A stretch of DNA of 64,000 nt, taken from Bacteroidales bacterium UBA5429 (GTDB lineage Bacteria; Bacteroidota; Bacteroidia; Bacteroidales; WCHB1-69). A program made the position numbers and the translations under genes. The first letter of the stretch is position 1; each line of letters begins with the position of its first letter. Below the pieces are notes generated by a model that worked only from the letters and a program-made list of their open reading frames with translations, made no database searches and was not told where the DNA came from. The stretch is taken from the NCBI GenBank assembly GCA_002427605.1, contig DIRT01000020.1:10013-74012 (forward strand). The letters are read 5' to 3'. This document shows positions 8,506 through 64,000 of this stretch, piece after piece.

Positions 8506-8579
8506 GGCTCCGTAGTTCAGCTGAATAGAACGTCAGATTCCGGTTCTGAAGGTCGTGGGTTTGAATCCCGCCGGAGTCA
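8506..8579 (+). tRNA. tRNA-Arg (anticodon CCG)
   Basis: Hand-folded 74-nt cloverleaf: acceptor GGCTCCG/CGGAGTC, D stem GTTC/GAAC, anticodon stem TCAGA/TCTGA, loop TTCCGGT, T stem GTGGG/CCCGC. Confidence 0.9.
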
Positions 8580-8593
8580 CTAACTTATTTATT

Positions 8594-8836
8594 ATGAGAA
8601 AGATAATAAATAAAATCATGTGGATTATTTCCCAGATTTTGATTTTTTTGATCAAAATTTATCAATGGACACTCTCTCCATTGATGGGAAATAGCTGCAG
8701 ATTTACGCCCACTTGCTCGGCTTATGGCATCGAAGCACTCAAAAAACATGGTCCTTTTAAAGGCAGTTGGCTTACTTTGAAAAGAATTATCCGATGCAAT
8801 CCCTGGGGCGGCAGCGGCTACGACCCGGTTCCCTGA
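8594..8836 (+). CDS. yidD: membrane protein insertion efficiency factor YidD
   Basis: [31 protein letters not shown] is the YidD signature. The start was moved to ATG 8594 because the track ORF start (8555) lies inside the tRNA. Confidence 0.9.
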
Positions 8837-9463
8837 AGGTAGAAGGTAGAAGGAAGAAGGCAGAAGGCGGAATAAATAAATTTAGAATTTAGAAATTAGA
8901 ATTGAATTATCTGCTGTTTTACATTATAATACCCTAAAAATTAAGTACATCAATGAAACATGTTAAAGTTGACCATTTTCAATTTTCAACTTTCAATTTT
9001 CAATTAATGAAACTTTCGCCTATCGCCTTTTTATTATTCCGCCTTCCGCCTTTAAAAGATTTTTTTCTTTTTTTGGAAATAAAAAAAAAGGGGGGCAGCA
9101 TAGATTTCCCTTTTAGGTTATTTTATTTCCCCACTCTGGAATGTTAGACCATTTTTGATATGCAGTGAGGCAATTACGAATTACGAATCAATATGATTTC
9201 TAAATTTTTGGGACATTGTGTAAATTGCATTGTATCAACCAAATAACATCGGCTGTAGAGACGCAATGCATTGCGTCTCTACGGTCAAATATAACAACAA
9301 AATCCTAATTAAACGCATTAATTTACAAATTTTGAATTATTGTTTTTTCATAATTTGTAATTTTTAGGAAAGGTCGCGACCTGTCCCTACAATAAACGCG
9401 ATTAATTAAAATTTTCGGTCCCGTAATTCGTAATTGGATTCCGCCTTCCGCCTTCCGCCTTCA
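8836..9463. repeat. mosaic intergenic repeat element (heptamer arrays, palindromes and a G-run module)
   Basis: Components in order:
- AAGGNNG x5 at 8836..8870
- TTTAGAA x3-4 at 8881..8908
- ATTTTCA x4 at 8975..9002
- CCGCCTT x2 at 9039..9052
- G-run module at 9075..9139
- AATTACG x2 at 9172..9185
- 28-nt perfect palindrome at 9255..9282
- AGGTCGCGACCT at 9371..9382
- CGTAATT x2 at 9422..9435
- CCGCCTT x3 at 9441..9461. Confidence 0.9.
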
Positions 9464-10354
9464 TCATTGCTCTTGGTATCCAAACCGCTTCATCATCAGG
9501 TCTTGGTTGCGCCAGTCTTTGAGGACTTTGACGGAGAGGTCGAGATAGACCTGCTTTTCGATAAATTCCTCGATTGCTTTTCGGGATTCAATGCCCAATT
9601 GTTTGATGGCAGAGCCTTTGCTGCCAATCAGAATTCCTTTTTGGGTGTCCCGCTCGCAGTACAGCATGGCGCTGATTTGCACGATATGATCAGCTTCTTT
9701 ATAGCTATCTACCACTACCTCAACACTATAGGGAATCTCTTTTTTGTACAACAACAAAATTTTTTCTCTGATGATCTCGCTGATAAAAAAACGAACCGGC
9801 TTGTCGGTGAGCTGATCTTTTGGAAAAAATGGGGGAGAAAAGGGCAGGTGTTGGACAATCCTTTCCTGCAACCATTCTATTCCGATTTGGTGTAAAGCGG
9901 AGAGAGCAATCGACTCAATGTCCGGGAAAAGATTGGTCCAATATTGCTCTGTCTCTTTTACTGCTTCCGGTGTACTTTTATCGACTTTATTGATAATCAA
10001 TATTTTGGGAATTTTGCACTCTTGCAATTGAGTCATAATCTCTTCATTGAAGCGGGTTTCACCCACTTCAACCATCAACAAAATGAGGTCGGCATCGGTG
10101 AGGGCAACACGGATGAAGTGCATCATCATTTCCTGCATTTTATATGCCGGATCAAGGATTCCCGGAAGATCGGAATAGACAATCTGATAATCCTCTTCGT
10201 TGACAATACCCCGAATCCGATGTCGCGTAGTTTGTGCCTTATTGGTAATAATCGACAATCGTTCACCCACCAAAAGGTTCATCAATGTGCTTTTCCCAAC
10301 GTTGGGATTGCCGATAATATTTACAAATCCTGCTCTGTGTGTCTCTTGATTCAT
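9464..10354 (-). CDS. era: GTPase Era
   Basis: GNPNVGKST, DLPG and NKVD motifs plus a KH domain at the C-terminus. The start was moved to MNQETHRAGF (10354) to avoid overlapping queD. Confidence 0.9.
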   Translation of the reverse strand: MNQETHRAGFVNIIGNPNVGKSTLMNLLVGERLSIITNKAQTTRHRIRGIVNEEDYQIVYSDLPGILDPAYKMQEMMMHFIRVALTDADLILLMVEVGETRFNEEIMTQLQECKIPKILIINKVDKSTPEAVKETEQYWTNLFPDIESIALSALHQIGIEWLQERIVQHLPFSPPFFPKDQLTDKPVRFFISEIIREKILLLYKKEIPYSVEVVVDSYKEADHIVQISAMLYCERDTQKGILIGSKGSAIKQLGIESRKAIEEFIEKQVYLDLSVKVLKDWRNQDLMMKRFGYQEQ

Positions 10355-25919: not shown

Positions 25920-25992
25920 ATAACTATTATTTTGATGTTTATGATGCGAAAATAGATATTGAATATGCCAAATAATAGCACAAGACTAAAAA

Positions 25993-26332
25993 TTTCGGAT
26001 TTCGGATTTCGGATTTCGGAATGAAGGCGGAATCAACATTGTACTGTAAAGACGCAATGCTTTGCGTCTCTACAGCCATCCGCATTATATTTTTTAATCT
26101 CTGATAATCAAGGTTATCAACACACAATTTATCCAAAAGGTAGAATATTCCTTAGACCACCCCGCCCTTCGGGCACCCCTCCTTCTTCCAGAGGAGGGGA
26201 GTTAAAATAACAAAAGAGGTACACCTTTTCTGCCCCCCTTTTTTTTTATTTCCAAAAAAAGAAAAATAATAAATTTATGGAGATTATTAAAATCCTATAT
26301 CATTTCGCCTTCCGACTTTCGACTGTCGCCTT
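25993..26332. repeat. mosaic intergenic repeat block
   Basis: Components:
- TTTCGGA x4 at 25993..26020
- imperfect palindrome at 26046..26073
- G-run module (reverse orientation) at 26161..26253
- TTTCGCC/TTCCGAC/TTTCGAC/TGTCGCC at 26303..26330, abutting the stop codon at 26333. Confidence 0.9.
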
Positions 26333-27316
26333 TTAATCGCTTTCCGAAATCAAAAAGTTTACTTTTTTGTATCTCTTTTCCAGCCATTTCCGGTTGCTGC
26401 TTTGGTATCCTACGGCGTAGTTGATCTCTTCTCGCGGGACGGTAATCTGAAAAGTGTCACCCTGCTGTTTTTTTGCTTCTGCCAGGAGTCGCTCTTTCCA
26501 GATTTCGGTGAGAACCAGCTCTTTAAAGGATACATGAAACGGTCCGGCGACCAGTTCCGTTTGGTGGATTAATCCCTCGGAGGGGTGCAAGCCTATTCGC
26601 AATATTGTAACCTGGTGGCTCTCAAACTCTTTATAGATAGGAACACACCAAGCCACCGCCTCTTCTAACGAAAGAGGAGTGTATTTTCCGGCAAGGTAGA
26701 GCCGTTCCAGCAGGGTACCCTTGATCACTAATGTAGGGTAGATTCGCGCGTGGGTTCCCCCCAATTTTATTAATTCCAAAGAAGTAAAAAAAGATTTCTC
26801 AGCGGTATCACCGGGTAAGCCGATCATCATTTGCACACCCAACTCAAACTGATGTGTCGTGATGAGCTGTGCGCTACGGCGAATATCCTCGACAGTATGC
26901 CCCCGCTGAGCCAGCCACAACACCTCGGGATCCATCGAAGGCGTGCCCAACTCAATGAGGGAAACGTGATATTGCTTGAGATTGCGTAAAATGGTCTCGT
27001 CGATATAATCCGGACGGGTAGAAAGCTGTATGGAATCAACTTGCTGACTCTCGATATAAGGCTGAACTGCTTGCAGATACTGCTCCTGCTTTTGCCAGGG
27101 CAAACCGGTAAAACTACCGCCGAAAAAAGCGATTTTTACTCGGATATCTTCATTCTGAAAAGGGATCGTTTTCAGGTATTGCTCAACAGTCGCAACCACC
27201 TCTTGAGGAGTGGGAGAGAGGGTTTTGTTTGTAATATGGTACTGATTACAGTAAGAACAGCGGTGTGGACAGGCGTCCTCCGGTATAAAAATGGGAATCG
27301 TGTAAAATTTCTTCAA
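26333..27316 (-). CDS. radical SAM protein (Elp3/HemN-like fold, no HAT domain)
   Basis: CPHRCSYCNQ cluster motif near the N-terminus, 327 aa. Confidence 0.7.
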   Translation of the reverse strand: MKKFYTIPIFIPEDACPHRCSYCNQYHITNKTLSPTPQEVVATVEQYLKTIPFQNEDIRVKIAFFGGSFTGLPWQKQEQYLQAVQPYIESQQVDSIQLSTRPDYIDETILRNLKQYHVSLIELGTPSMDPEVLWLAQRGHTVEDIRRSAQLITTHQFELGVQMMIGLPGDTAEKSFFTSLELIKLGGTHARIYPTLVIKGTLLERLYLAGKYTPLSLEEAVAWCVPIYKEFESHQVTILRIGLHPSEGLIHQTELVAGPFHVSFKELVLTEIWKERLLAEAKKQQGDTFQITVPREEINYAVGYQSSNRKWLEKRYKKVNFLISESD

Positions 27317-29136: not shown

Positions 29137-29187
29137 TTATCATATTTTGCAATAACTTTTGAAAAAAATAGCTCTTTTGCCCTTAAA

Positions 29188-29732
29188 TTTAGAATTTAGA
29201 AATTAGAATTTAGAAATTAAAATTTGGAATTTAGAATTGTTGATTCAGTTATTTTAGAGCTAAAACTCTGATAATCAGATTTATAAATTCGCAATCCGAA
29301 ATCATTTTGTCTTTATTTTATGTTTCTTATTTGGAAATAAAAAAAATGGGGGGCAGGAAAGGTGTACCTCTTTTGTTATTTTAACTCCCCTCCTCTGGAA
29401 GAAGGAGGGGTGCCCGAAGGGCGGGGTGGTCTATGGAATATTCTGCCTTTTGGACAAATTGTGTATTGAAAACGTTGATTATCAGAGAAATGAAAATACG
29501 ATACACATGGTCATGAAAACGCAATGCATTGCGTCTCTACAGCCATTTTTACGACCATTTTCACAACCATTTTCATTGTTTTATTTTCCCCGGACAGATC
29601 GCGACCTGTCCCTACAATAATCGCATTCAATTCAATTTTTCGGTTCCGTAATTCGTAATTTGTAATTCGTAATTGGATTCCTTCCGCCTTCCGCCCTCCG
29701 CCTTCCGCCTTTTTTATTCTTCCTTCTTCCTT
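29188..29732. repeat. mosaic intergenic repeat block, colinear with 8836..9463
   Basis: Components:
- TTTAGAA-type x7 at 29188..29236
- G-run module at 29333..29425
- half palindrome at 29517..29542
- GGACAGATCGCGACCTGTCC at 29592..29611
- CGTAATT x4 at 29647..29674
- CCGCCTT x4 at 29684..29711. Confidence 0.9.
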
Positions 29733-48373: not shown

Positions 48374-48811
48374 TTATAGATTAAACGGAGCTTGATACTT
48401 GATGGTCGCTCCAATAACGCGATTATTGTCGTTGGGGTCAGTGATGAAATTTAGTACCTGAAAACGGGCATAAACCCCGTCAGAGTTCCAATCTCTCACG
48501 ATATAGCTATTTCCTGGTACGATGGGCAAAATGGTACTCCATCCATAACGTGGCAAACTCCTGATCTGACGTAAAGTTACATTTCCAACGTTGTTGATAT
48601 CAACACCATAAGTAATAAATGAACCCCCTTGAACAGTTAAATAATGGATGTGATCGACATAAGGATCATATTCAAAAATGGAGTTGAAATATAAAAATTG
48701 TCCCTCAACGATATCTAAAGTAATGGTTCCTCTTGGATCCTCATTGGGATCAACATCTTCGCAACCGGCGAATGAAAGCGCAACAATCAGAATAAAAAAT
48801 AGCTTTTTCAT
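48374..48811 (-). CDS. lipoprotein, unknown function
   Basis: Lipobox LSFAGC. 145 aa, beta-rich. Confidence 0.5.
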
Positions 48812-48832
48812 GGGTGTTTGATTTTCAACCTA

Positions 48833-48840
48833 CAAAAATA
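48833..48840 (-). promoter_or_regulatory. -7 box TATTTTTG
   Basis: 22 nt upstream of ATG 48811. Confidence 0.55.
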
Positions 48841-48846
48841 CAAAAG

Positions 48847-48951
48847 ATTTCGGATTTTGGATTTATTTCTTCTTATTTTTTATTTGGAAATTTAAATAAT
48901 TGGGGGGCAGGAAAGGTCTCGCTATTTTGATATTCTATTTCCCCACTCTGG
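48847..48951. repeat. short mosaic repeat block (ATTTCGG-type heptamers plus G-run module)
   Basis: ATTTCGG ATTTTGG ATTTATT... at 48847..48870. GGAAATTTAAATAATTGGGGGGCAGG...CCCCACTCTGG at 48886..48951. Confidence 0.8.
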
Positions 48952-48976
48952 GAAACATCCGAAATTAAAAAAGTTG

Positions 48977-48984
48977 TATATTTG
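48977..48984 (+). promoter_or_regulatory. -7 box TATATTTG
   Basis: Lies inside the 5' end of the track ORF, which forces a later start (49016 or 49040). Confidence 0.5.
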
Positions 48985-49039
48985 CGCTTGTGAAATAAAA
49001 AGATTCCTGTGCAAAATGGTGCAAACAAAGAACTTATCA

Positions 49040-49567
49040 ATGAGATATTTATTTTTTATTTTTATAATTATTTCTTCATCGTTAGTTGCACAAGAAAACA
49101 AGGGTGTTCGCTATCAATTACTGGATATTCATAAAATGTCTGATTTTAATTATCAGGGTATTGATTCTCTGGATCATAGTTCAAAAGCCGGTATTTGGCT
49201 TCTAGATCATGTATTTAATGTAGTTGATGGTGATTACACAGTTTATCGGTTTATTAATCATGATAGAGGTGTTCTTTTTGATGATAGCGATACGATGGAT
49301 ATATACAATTTAATTATTCTCAAAACAGACGAAAACAACTTAATAATTGATGGGTTCCACTATTCATTGACCAATCCGGAAATGCCACTCACATGTAAAT
49401 TGTACAGAATCACTCGCCAACACAAAATGAGTAAAAATATTGATATTCGAGCATTACTATTTAAACGCAAACAATTTTTGATCAACAAAGAGGATGACAT
49501 CTGTGATTCTACCGATTTGTTTTTTGATGCAGATATCATTTTGGATTGGAATATTTTCGAATTTTAA
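49040..49567 (+). CDS. secreted hypothetical protein
   Basis: The start was chosen at MRYLFFIFIIISSSLVAQ (signal peptide). I recognise no motif. Confidence 0.45.
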   Translation: MRYLFFIFIIISSSLVAQENKGVRYQLLDIHKMSDFNYQGIDSLDHSSKAGIWLLDHVFNVVDGDYTVYRFINHDRGVLFDDSDTMDIYNLIILKTDENNLIIDGFHYSLTNPEMPLTCKLYRITRQHKMSKNIDIRALLFKRKQFLINKEDDICDSTDLFFDADIILDWNIFEF

Positions 49568-49634
49568 ATTTGGCCAAGCTCTGTTGTATCAGAGAAATCA
49601 ACCTTCATTATATTCTACAAAATACGCAAGATTC

Positions 49635-49685
49635 CGTAATTCGTAATTGGATTCATTCCGCCTTCCGCCCTCCGCCTTCCGCCTT
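49635..49685. repeat. heptamer arrays CGTAATT x2 and CCGCCTT x4
   Basis: Nearly identical to 29661..29711, and located 22 nt beyond the lpxB stop. Confidence 0.9.
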
Positions 49686-49707
49686 TTTTACAACTGTGTA
49701 TTTATTG

Positions 49708-58017: not shown

Positions 58018-58327
58018 GGTTGTAGAGACAGGGCACAAGAGGTTCAAGTTACCGAGTGGGGAAATAGAATGACAAAAAAGGGGCGGATGTTCTGCCCCCC
58101 AATTATTTAAAATACCAAATAAGAAATAAGAAGTAAGAAATAAAGTCGAAAGTAAAAAGGCGAAAGTCGAAATCTGGGTTTTTGTGTATATAAAATACAA
58201 TTTATTGACAATCAGAATAATATAAAAAATCAAATAAATAAATTCTACCTTCTACCTTCTTCCTTCTACCTTGTAAAAGCGTAATTCGTAATTCGTAATT
58301 GATTTCCGAAATCCGAAATCCGAAATC
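58018..58327. repeat. mosaic intergenic repeat block
   Basis: Components:
- half palindrome TGTAGAGACAGGGC at 58021..58034
- G-run module (reverse orientation) at 58052..58116
- AAATAAG/GTCGAAA-type x8 at 58117..58172
- TTCTACC x4 at 58243..58270
- CGTAATT x3 at 58280..58300
- AATCCGA-type x3 at 58303..58327. Confidence 0.9.
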
Positions 58328-62946: not shown

Positions 62947-64000
62947 TTACTCTACATTAGCAATAAAAGTTATAACTGTTCCCTGACCAATATGAGATTG
63001 AACAATTACTTTTCCACCTACTTTTTCACCACGATATTTCATGTTGCGTAGTCCATTTCGTGTATTCTCCCGGGATGTGTCAAATCCTTTTCCGTTATCT
63101 TTTATCTTCATTTTTAAAACAGAATGAGAGAAAGAAAATTCAATTTTTGCCTCTGAACATTCGGAATATTTTGCCATGTTGTTTACTGCCTCTTTTGCAA
63201 TTAAAAACAGATTTCGACGCATATCCATTGAAATTTTTAAAGATGTTACATTATCGGGAACAATAATGGATAACTTCACATCTAACGGCTCCAAAAGCGG
63301 TATGGCATATTCCCTTATACGCACTATAATGTTGTAAAAACTATCGTTTTGAGGATTGACAGACCAAATAATATCATCCATCGATTCGAGCATGTTTTTT
63401 GCATTTTTTCCTATTTTGCTAAGCATCTCTTCTGCATTGGGACTGTCATCCAGTCGGGATTGCAATAAATCGCTCATAATAGAGATGCTACTGAGTGTAG
63501 AGCCAATGTCGTCATGCAAATCAGATGCGATTTTTGTACGAATTTGCAGTTGCTTTTCCTTGTGCCTCTTTCGGTTTAGATGTAGAAGATAACCAATAGC
63601 TATGATTGCGATAGATGCCAGCGATATAAACCACCATGTTCTCCAAAAAGCTTGCTTTACTCTGAATTCAACCGATTTGTTGTATCCTAACCAAACACCT
63701 TTGTATGAAACATCTACTATAAAACGATATTTCCCCGGTTTTAAGTTGGTGTAACGGGCTTCCAGTATAGTAGTTGGCGAATTCCAGTCATTTTCCAAAC
63801 CCTCTAGTTTGTACCGATAACGAACCTGGCTGTAATCCTCAAAACAGATTGCCGTGTAACCAAAAGTAATATTATTTCGATTGTACTTAACGGCACGCGG
63901 AGTTTCTCTTTTATAATAAGGATTCCAATCGAGAACCGGTTGACCGTTAATGCTGACTCTTTCAATAATTAAGTTCGATACACTGGATTGTGAATATTTT
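62947..64000 (-). CDS. sensor histidine kinase (Y_Y_Y domain, TM, HisKA_3, HATPase), C-terminal part; gene runs off the right edge
   Basis: The track start at 63798 is a TTG. My translation stays open to 64000 (...YSQVRYRYKLEGLENDWNSP is the Y_Y_Y motif). This is followed by a TM, an H-box IASDLHDDIG, and N and G boxes. Confidence 0.85.
   Translation of the reverse strand, partial: KYSQSSVSNLIIERVSINGQPVLDWNPYYKRETPRAVKYNRNNITFGYTAICFEDYSQVRYRYKLEGLENDWNSPTTILEARYTNLKPGKYRFIVDVSYKGVWLGYNKSVEFRVKQAFWRTWWFISLASIAIIAIGYLLHLNRKRHKEKQLQIRTKIASDLHDDIGSTLSSISIMSDLLQSRLDDSPNAEEMLSKIGKNAKNMLESMDDIIWSVNPQNDSFYNIIVRIREYAIPLLEPLDVKLSIIVPDNVTSLKISMDMRRNLFLIAKEAVNNMAKYSECSEAKIEFSFSHSVLKMKIKDNGKGFDTSRENTRNGLRNMKYRGEKVGGKVIVQSHIGQGTVITFIANVE

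Follow-up and report, generated by a model that had tools for sequence, protein, structure and literature searches.

What can fill a bacterial intergenic gap of about 0.6 kb that seems to hold no gene and is made largely of seven-nucleotide repeats? Among long simple repeats, heptanucleotide arrays are in many bacteria the most over-represented class; they have been known since 1990, and we know of no accepted explanation for their origin, polarity or function. The case considered here is the gap between yidD and era (8836-9463) in 64,000 nt of DNA from the uncultured Bacteroidales bacterium UBA5429 (contig DIRT01000020.1; this whole stretch is called the window below). The gap, whose neighbors were identified by Pfam as YidD (E=2e-32; open reading frame (ORF) 8594-8836) and Era, consists of 7-nt tandem arrays, hairpins that resemble repetitive extragenic palindromic (REP) elements, and a dispersed element of ~130 nt marked by a G-run. 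An initial annotation, made from the sequence alone, had called it non-coding, and we agree that it contains no credible gene: its two ORFs, of 64 and 45 aa, span arrays and match no Pfam family, and coding potential was rejected on these grounds. In our view, neither a gene for a protein or an RNA nor one transposon accounts for the gap. Rather, we favor, with moderate confidence, the view that it is a permissive space that holds a lineage-specific library of selfish or neutral short non-coding repeats, altered via slippage and, probably, recombination.

Every module that had been listed for the gap could be located in its place, including the 28-nt palindrome, the motif AGGTCGCGACCT and the G-run module (Table 1), and together they form a hierarchy of inverted repeats. 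The CCGCCTT array, as the right arm to 8857-8880 (88% complementary), closes a first hairpin unit of ~200 nt, in which the pair 8857-8880/9029-9052 surrounds an inner pair, 8876-8906/8978-9008. A second pair, 9171-9185/9422-9436, is perfect and has both GTAG hairpins within it, and in the outermost pair, 8849-8873/9438-9462, the array beside yidD is matched with the one beside era (9438-9463). The G-run element of the gap is composed, in order, of a T-rich lead, TTGGAAATA(A)n, GGGGGGCAG, a semi-variable part of 30 nt, CCCCACTCTGG, a spacer and (AATTACG)2.4. Folded as single-stranded DNA, the gap gave z = -5.5, with a minimum-energy structure made of exactly these inverted-repeat pairings, the paired outer arrays included. 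As RNA, four of the seven mosaics found in the window folded with z = -7.8, -5.6, -5.4 and -2.8, compared with -0.2 to -1.5 for six other intergenic gaps and +0.6 to -2.1 for three coding controls. In the remaining three (mosaics 5 to 7) the arrays on the two sides do not complement each other, which explains their z of ~0, and hairpin potential was therefore rejected as a universal property of the mosaics. Even in these three, the units are rich in purines on the left and in pyrimidines on the right, so that polarity extends further than complementarity does.

Such a structure could in principle be an assembly artefact produced from collapsed or chimeric repeats, and the regions are indeed hard to assemble: short-read contigs from many samples end in arrays (in at least nine other samples, 30-65 nt beyond the era stop codon and inside AAGGCGG/AATTACG arrays), and contigs that bear atpD end at mosaics on either side. 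We regard this explanation, which had been raised as a concern from the start, as practically negligible. A contig of 166 kb from an independent metagenome assembly (ERZ934801 k127_142922; L007) matches 20 kb of the window at 99.3% identity and the stretch 8800-9480, with the whole yidD-era mosaic, at 100%. The same outer arrays are present in at least nine independent samples, related mosaics are found in at least 120 metagenome contigs, and AATTACG arrays occur in complete isolate genomes (Calothrix NIES-267, Nostoc NIES-4103). With a base-identical independent assembly and contigs that end in arrays, the repeats are therefore both real and assembly-breaking. The ProRS and Era proteins of the window are encoded on many contigs from biogas, fermentation and digester metagenomes, as well as on a 2.34-Mb contig of GCA_900198705.1; proteins identical to this ProRS carry the label 'Bacteroidales bacterium' at NCBI. 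For the comparisons below, a lineage sample was drawn by scanning metagenomes with a strict G-run pattern; it comprises at least 120 stretches, ~1 Mb in all and partly redundant, exclusively from metagenome assemblies, and those whose record names give a source come from activated-sludge or fermentation assemblies.

Arrays were detected with Tandem Repeats Finder and an exact-period scan (exact arrays of at least 14 nt), with expectations taken from local shuffles. The window contains 25 exact period-7 arrays against 3.75 expected, while periods 8, 9, 10, 11 and 12 yielded 1, 0, 0, 0 and 0. All but one of the 25 (the exception is at 63095-63108) lie within or border seven gaps that add up to 2.3 kb, or 3.6% of the window. 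Related modules are present in all six of the other gaps that the initial annotation had named. Its count of at least eight gaps comes down to seven, and its statement that every tandem unit is exactly 7 nt long was too strict, as a 12-nt repeat (29539-29575) and a 4-nt run (58216-58243) also occur inside mosaics. The tandem-repeat and repeat-finding output contained no pattern of the CRISPR type (24-48-nt repeats with unique spacers); the units are 7 nt long and contiguous. Nor are the modules confined to the window, as 689 distinct exact heptamer arrays were found in the lineage sample, 94% of them outside ORFs and 6% inside. Of these, 472 are flanked by called genes on either side, and more than 90% of the 472 consist of one of eight units (AATTACG 125, ATTTCGG 74, AAGGCGG 69, AATTTAG 60, AAAGTCG 37, AAGGTAG 33, AAATAAG 15 and AAGAAGT 13).

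These arrays are polar with respect to the nearest gene boundary. Within 80 nt of gene 3' ends, the six main units (AATTACG, AAGGCGG, ATTTCGG, AATTTAG, AAGGTAG and AAAGTCG) read in the gene sense by 124:21, and within 80 nt of gene 5' ends they read as the complement by 43:3. Reading inward from either gene boundary, one meets the same strand independently of gene direction (per-unit left/right counts, 310:88). Arrays start as close as 0-4 nt past stop codons, as in TGA-AGGCGG at era and ruvC and TGA-AGGTAG at yidD. Since the polarity to the nearest gene boundary is fixed, each mosaic is a set of nested imperfect inverted repeats that can be folded into long hairpins or cruciforms. The inverted arrays at the two ends of the yidD-era gap, which had been likened to the terminal inverted repeats of a transposon, are an instance of this general rule as it appears at a convergent gap, and neither a target-site duplication nor a clean insertion polymorphism was found between strains.

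Arrays that begin 0-4 nt from a stop codon and are purine-rich in the mRNA sense (124:21), in regions whose folding energy lies far below that of shuffled sequence, might be expected of functional cis-elements or small RNAs, such as terminators or insulators at convergent gene pairs, stabilizers of mRNA 3' ends, or tandem sites for a regulator that binds RNA or DNA; regulator binding has been proposed for heptamer (TAACTGA) repeats (MacGregor, 2015; PMC4679880). The G-run core, which runs through an A-tract, the G-run, a loop, CCC and a T-tract, also resembles a weak bidirectional terminator. We nevertheless consider this explanation quite unlikely. The polarity is the same beside 5' ends (43:3) and is therefore set by position on the DNA, not by the transcript. 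No canonical intrinsic terminator (a short loop on a stem rich in GC and 5 bp or longer, with a T-run) is predicted in 8836-9463, and both predictions in the scanned stretch fall within coding sequence, so that the G-run and the palindromes were rejected as canonical terminators. At gathering score, the only Rfam match in the whole window is a tRNA-Arg at 8506-8579, and relaxed E-values brought up only sub-threshold noise in the two mosaics searched; a known RNA family was thus rejected as well. A structured RNA was rejected for the G-run module in particular, as mutual information over 111 same-length copies (of 147) showed no Watson-Crick covariation; what it did show was subfamily linkage in the left part and a weak link between left GGAAAT and right ATTTCC. 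A regulatory role also fits poorly with a module content that differs between strains of 97-99% identity, and with syntenic relatives that do without the elements.

How the mosaics change can be followed between the sampled strains, whose genes are 97-99.7% identical and whose mosaics differ. All 11 distinct indels of at least 7 nt inside aligned blocks fall in heptamer arrays (nine of 7 nt, one of 13 and one of 21), which is direct evidence that replication slippage lengthens and shortens arrays by whole 7-nt units. The same comparisons show directly that interior modules differ between strains at one and the same site while the outermost arrays at the stop codons persist. At the yidD-era gap, the era edge was kept in all strains sampled, and in L246 the interior measures 761 nt vs 570 nt in the window: what they have in common is limited to both edges, the AATTTAG array and the G-run block (at 97% identity), and other hairpin modules replace the half that bears the palindrome. 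Elsewhere, wholly different module sets take the place of window 48856-48957 and 49573-49711 in L001-L006, and at the site 3' of the gene at 26333, where the flanks are conserved, three strains each have a different G-run copy. In L280, 77 nt replace 48382-49704 of the window. This 1.3-kb block contains two hypothetical genes for small proteins (145 and 183 aa, neither with a Pfam match), which lie between mosaics (48374-49567), and since it is swapped as a whole, it behaves as a cassette that varies between strains and is bordered by repeats.

On our reading, the library is made up of heptanucleotide microsatellite arrays, GTAG(A/G)GAC REP-like hairpins and the ~130-nt G-run element with heptamer arrays at its ends. 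The patchworks suggest that ectopic recombination or gene conversion may move interior modules from locus to locus, with homology supplied by the arrays and module cores that the loci share, and the identical G-run copies described below suggest that these may occasionally be duplicated to new loci. The elements would persist mainly because intergenic space, and convergent gaps especially, tolerates them, as may be the case for REP sequences, bacterial interspersed mosaic elements (BIMEs) and the short tandemly repeated repetitive (STRR) sequences. Hairpins in 3' untranslated regions, hot spots for the turnover of small gene cassettes, and broken short-read assemblies would then be side effects.

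The two non-array components were characterized in the lineage sample. About 60 GTAG(A/G)GAC hairpins fall into four subfamilies, all of which open with this head and differ in their palindromic cores. Subfamilies 3 and 4 have GTAG outside the stem. In subfamilies 1 and 2 it belongs to the stem (GTAG...CTAC), and the orientation of these two is undefined because they are self-palindromic. Hairpin pairs often sit between inverted AATTACG arms, and there are further recurrent mini-hairpins (GGGCTTTAGCCC, CCCCTTCGGGG and GATAATCAAG..TTATC). The G-run element is represented by 147 distinct copies with the consensus TTaTTTgGaAaTtaAAAtAAa-GGGGGGCAG-(30 nt, semi-variable)-CCCCACTCtggAAt. Comparison of identical copies at unrelated loci indicates that the copied unit is ~130 nt long and extends from the T-rich/CTTATTT lead to GTGATC(AATTACG)n; such identical cores in unrelated contexts number 3 of 139, and the yidD-era copy is among them (its twin is in L284). 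The element favors convergent gaps, where it occupies 36 of 94, as compared with 56 of 517 tandem and 13 of 87 divergent gaps, and it is almost never found inside ORFs (one copy). Two copies in the window (extensions at 26154-26187 and 29399-29432) carry a GC-rich extension, CCCCTCCTCTGGAAGAAGGAGGGGTGCCCGAAGGGCGGGGTGGTCT, that forms two short hairpins, and the other window copies are without it.

Whether these elements are confined to one lineage was examined in relatives with ProRS 83-87% identical (L366 (GCA_942493315.1) and L367 to L371). The gene order of the window around proS is retained in L366 and L369. The syntenic loci of ~21 kb and two shorter contigs gave 0 arrays, 0 G-run elements and 0 GTAG hairpins. 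Taken together, L366-L371 contain no G-run element and no GTAG(A/G)GAC hairpin, and they have a single short heptamer array (14 nt, of an unrelated unit; L367 and L368) vs 11 in the equivalent stretch of the lineage.

This patchiness, with the repeats in the lineage and not in its syntenic relatives, is one of several features to be expected if the modules were non-autonomous elements of the REPIN type or of the miniature inverted-repeat transposable element (MITE) type, that is, hairpin single-stranded DNA mobilized in trans by an HUH tyrosine transposase (RAYT or IS200/IS605-like TnpA) that recognizes GTAG hairpins, with the arrays as part of the element ends. The GTAG feature of REP elements was reportedly described by Nunvar and colleagues in 2010. 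The hairpins here are GTAG-headed, with GTAG 5' of the stem in subfamilies 3 and 4 as in classical REPs; they are extragenic, present in many copies and clustered in mosaics in the manner of BIMEs; identical G-run copies occur at unrelated loci; and in genome loci the order (AATTACG)n...(CGTAATT)n outnumbers the opposite one by 20:4. The same hairpin head is also seen in Nostoc, and REPINs and RAYTs have been reported in Nostoc punctiforme, as well as in E. coli and Pseudomonas (Bertels and Rainey, 2011; PMC3116915). We take this explanation seriously and yet judge it unlikely. The distinct large strain differences are all replacements or gene-sized indels, with no clean insertion or deletion with a target-site duplication among them. 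No transposase family in multiple copies or contexts was found among 800 ORFs from the ~1 Mb of lineage DNA, and tblastn with an IS200 TnpA sequence, a test of low sensitivity, gave nothing below E = 0.65. The left and right ends of the G-run element do not covary, and hence terminal inverted repeats of the MITE type are not supported. No gene family was enriched beside arrays when 1480 ORFs from 184 array-bearing loci of other taxa were clustered; the families that recur there are generic (histidine kinases, ABC transporters, phage proteins). In five of these 184 loci, from other taxa and viral contigs, small genes for a four-helix bundle (23S rRNA IVP-like) are close to (CGTAATT)n and (AATTACG)n arrays in inverted orientation or are enclosed by them (L031:64-1010, L103:3250-4660, L108:1620-2060, L198:612-1036 and L204:1653-2108); as an array partner this gene was rejected, since five loci are too few and it is absent from the lineage sample.

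The distribution of the arrays beyond the lineage also bears on our preferred reading, that of a repeat library tolerated in permissive gaps. Among GTDB species genomes, at least 120 stretches contain (AATTACG)3. By record titles, the matches listed comprise 57 cyanobacterial, 28 Bacteroidota, 8 Acidobacteriota, 7 Chloroflexota, 4 Planctomycetota, 3 Ignavibacteria and 13 other records, with isolates of Chitinophaga, Algoriphagus and Flavobacterium as well as Calothrix NIES-267 and Nostoc NIES-4103. In the loci of other taxa, (AATTACG)n-loop-(CGTAATT)n hairpins are frequent and have unrelated loops, and GTAGAGACG...CGTCTCTAC palindromes are also present in Nostoc loci. Viral contigs yielded 64 stretches with (AATTACG)3 and 23 with (AAGGCGG)3, while two shuffles of the same composition gave 5 and 7, so that (AATTACG)3 is ~10-fold more common than these shuffles; several of the viral arrays are intergenic hairpins between phage genes. 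Viral contigs of 59-68% GC also contain (AAGGCGG)4-5 (L229:1640-1740, L231:12980-13020), and in L229 a stop codon immediately precedes the array, with a pyrimidine-rich (CCTTCAT) array next in line, which is also the layout in the window, of 39% GC.

Several points thus weigh against a library shaped by slippage and recombination alone. The vocabulary is far narrower, and its spread over phyla wider, than purely local slippage would allow, and the excess in viral contigs (64 stretches vs 5 and 7) points the same way. The strict polarity, and array starts that coincide with stop codons, hint at selection or a directional process, neither of which this reading provides. Recombination, as the shuffling mechanism, is read from patchwork patterns, and the lineage sample amounts to only ~1 Mb of partly redundant DNA. 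One could therefore imagine, although we hold it to be rather improbable, that (AATTACG)n-loop-(CGTAATT)n and GTAG hairpins are traces of a system, acting in trans and open to horizontal transfer, by which polar 7-nt arrays are written or propagated on resident DNA, phage DNA included; such a system might be an enzyme or a polymerase accessory. If true, this would explain why Nostocales, Bacteroidota, Acidobacteriota, Chloroflexota and viral contigs have these units in common, why loops and cores between the arms differ, why (AATTACG)3 exceeds the shuffles ~10-fold, and why one saturated Bacteroidales species exists beside syntenic sister lineages without these repeats. The responsible gene would then be findable by subtraction in the repeat-bearing/repeat-free pair GCA_900198705.1/GCA_942493315.1.

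How far, then, is the yidD-era mosaic new? Heptanucleotide arrays are the defining feature of the STRR sequences, reportedly described in heterocystous cyanobacteria by Mazel and colleagues in 1990, and the initial annotation had drawn this analogy. It proved apt: like STRR sequences, the arrays are dispersed, intergenic, high-copy 7-nt tandem repeats with no known function, the (AATTACG)n unit of the window is also arrayed in Nostoc, Anabaena, Calothrix and relatives, and Nostoc genomes share the GTAGAGACG...CGTCTCTAC palindromes too. Unlike STRR sequences, those described here belong to an uncultured Bacteroidales and are set in mosaics with REP-like hairpins and a lineage-specific ~130-nt element, and tandem units of STRR1-3 (CCCCAGT, TTGGTCA and CAACAGT) had 0 occurrences here.

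The closest precedent for the polarity comes from the intergenic repeats GGGAATC of Xanthomonas and GGGGAYT of Nostoc, which lie near ORFs, have an orientation independent of ORF direction (on the coding strand where they adjoin or overlap a stop codon, on the non-coding strand where they precede a start), occur in inverted pairs, and vary in length between relatives (Rehm et al., 2015; PMC4692102). Our arrays are likewise intergenic, fixed in orientation to the nearest ORF, found in inverted pairs that could form stem-loops, and variable in length. They differ in that their units do not form G-quadruplexes and that their interiors are swapped between strains, whereas the repeat regions of Rehm et al. 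are relatively stable (PMC4692102). A general excess of heptamers, and the idea of polymerase slippage, go back to Mrazek (2007), as cited in PMC4692102 and PMC4679880. It had also been stated that no equivalent family was known in Bacteroidota, which went too far, as heptamer direct repeats have been described in Beggiatoaceae, in Cyanobacteria and, as intergenic assemblages, in five Bacteroidetes, Gramella, Aequorivita, Elizabethkingia, Flexibacter and Paludibacter, along with repeat-free close relatives of the same gene neighborhood, contigs that end in repeats, a patchy distribution across phyla and a possible role in gene rearrangement (MacGregor, 2015; PMC4679880). The repeats described here share the intergenic setting in Bacteroidetes, the repeat-free relatives, the contig ends and the patchiness across phyla. 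The TAACTGA repeats of Beggiatoaceae, however, lie mostly just upstream of start codons, whereas ours are mostly at 3' ends and in convergent gaps, and TAACTGA arrays were not found in this lineage.

With REP sequences, BIMEs and REPINs, the hairpins share the short extragenic GTAG-headed palindromes in many copies, the mosaics with other short motifs, the enrichment where genes converge, the hairpin potential and the differences between strains. They depart from these in that BIMEs are without heptamer arrays, GTAG is in the stem in subfamilies 1 and 2 rather than a 5' overhang, and no RAYT was found in the sampled DNA (the 800 ORFs and the low-sensitivity tblastn described above). The G-run element, for its part, is multi-copy, diverged, present in both orientations, almost never in ORFs and found as identical copies at unrelated loci, as are MITE-like repeats such as Correia elements and the cyanobacterial small dispersed repeat (SDR)/MITE sequences. 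Unlike these, it ends in heptamer arrays, and no covarying terminal inverted repeats, target-site duplication or parental insertion sequence were found. Text searches of the literature for the array sequences and for the associated project and assembly accessions returned nothing relevant. Is the family then already described? The general kind is: the polarity rule, repeat-free relatives and contig breaks have all been reported for other heptamers, and the yidD-era mosaic is a new example of a heptamer-repeat phenomenon known from cyanobacteria, Xanthomonas and a few Bacteroidetes. These particular units, the G-run element and this host lineage are, in contrast, without precedent in Rfam or the searchable literature.

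What the lineage offers is a clean case, with a small genome, a compact vocabulary of eight units, many near-identical strains in public metagenomes, and syntenic sisters free of repeats. The contrast with these sister lineages makes the question of how such arrays are generated or mobilized testable by comparative genomics. The mosaics also fragment short-read assemblies and mark sites of cassette turnover, and they therefore matter for the quality of metagenome-assembled genomes and for strain-level analysis of digesters.

Table 1. Coordinates of the modules in the yidD-era gap and of the six other mosaics of the window
Feature	Position	Strand	Remarks
(AAGGTAG)2-AAGGAAG-AAGGCAG-AAGGCGG, i.e. 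(AAGGNNG)5	8835-8872	+	Overlaps yidD stop codon TGA; purine-rich on yidD sense strand
(AATTTAG)~3.6 heptamer array	8876-8906	+	Left arm of inner inverted repeat I2, partner 8978-9008; 8879-8903 by tandem-repeat detection
(ATTTTCA)4.4 heptamer array	8975-9008	+	71% complementary to AATTTAG array; 8975-9005 by tandem-repeat detection
(CCGCCTT) array	9015-9052	+	Degenerate 5' part, then exact (2.3 copies, 9037-9052)
G-run element, ~130 nt	9059-9189	+	Core 9072-9138; ends in (AATTACG)2.4 (9172-9188)
Perfect 28-nt palindrome GTAGAGACGCAATGCATTGCGTCTCTAC	9255-9282	no strand	REP-like GTAG hairpin, subfamily 1
REP-like hairpin GTAGGGACAGGTCGCGACCTttcc	9363-9390	-	Subfamily 3; 5' GTAG outside stem; includes AGGTCGCGACCT
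(CGTAATT)2	9422-9436	+	100% complementary to 9171-9185; closes second hairpin unit around both GTAG hairpins; 9422-9435 by tandem-repeat detection
(TTCCGCC)3.4	9438-9463	+	Abuts era stop codon (TCA on +, 9464-9466); AAGGCGG in era sense; 9439-9462 by tandem-repeat detection
Mosaic 2	25990-26332		(ATTTCGG)4, AAGGCGG, GTAG hairpin 26042-26077, G-run element on - strand 26188-26256; GC-hairpin extension from 26154; degenerate TTCGCCT/TCCGACT array to stop codon of gene at 26333
Mosaic 3	29186-29732		(AATTTAG)7.6, G-run element 29330-29398 and extension to 29432; GTAG hairpins 29509-29540 and 29588-29615; (CGTAATT)4, (CCTTCCG)4.6, (TTCTTCC)2
Mosaic 4, between proS and ruvC	41467-41730		(AATTACG)2, GTAG hairpins 41518-41545 and 41606-41633 (the latter a further perfect 28-nt palindrome), (CGTAATT)3, (TTCCGCC)3.4
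Mosaic 5	48846-48960		(GATTTCG)2.7 and G-run element 48883-48950; strains L001-L006 carry another module set
Mosaic 6	49635-49685	+	(CGTAATT)2-GGATTCA-(TTCCGCC)4 beside lpxB stop codon; 314-nt mosaic instead in other strains
Mosaic 7	58018-58327		Truncated GTAG hairpin, G-run element on - strand 58052-58119; arrays (AAATAAG), (AAAGTCG), (TTCTACC)4, (CGTAATT)3, (TCCGAAA)3

Some smaller observations concern the surroundings of the mosaics. A tRNA-Arg(CCG) gene (8506-8580) lies just 5' of the yidD ORF, and the mosaic starts only past yidD. In GCA_900198705.1 (L004:11600-11820; window ~41609), synteny with the window stops inside the GTAG palindrome 3' of proS; this break was unusable as a rearrangement, because the run of N (a scaffold gap) that follows means it may be a scaffolding join at a repeat. 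An insertion of ~1.5 kb beside an (AATTCTA)n array is present in one strain only (L353:10588-12077 vs L352:2859-2919) and could be an insertion sequence. Longer tandem repeats, of 78, 117 and 195 nt, occur at 38425-38904, inside an ORF on the - strand (38234-39901) for a hypothetical protein with no Pfam match; as its product ranges from 531 to 563 aa between strains, this coding repeat also varies in copy number.

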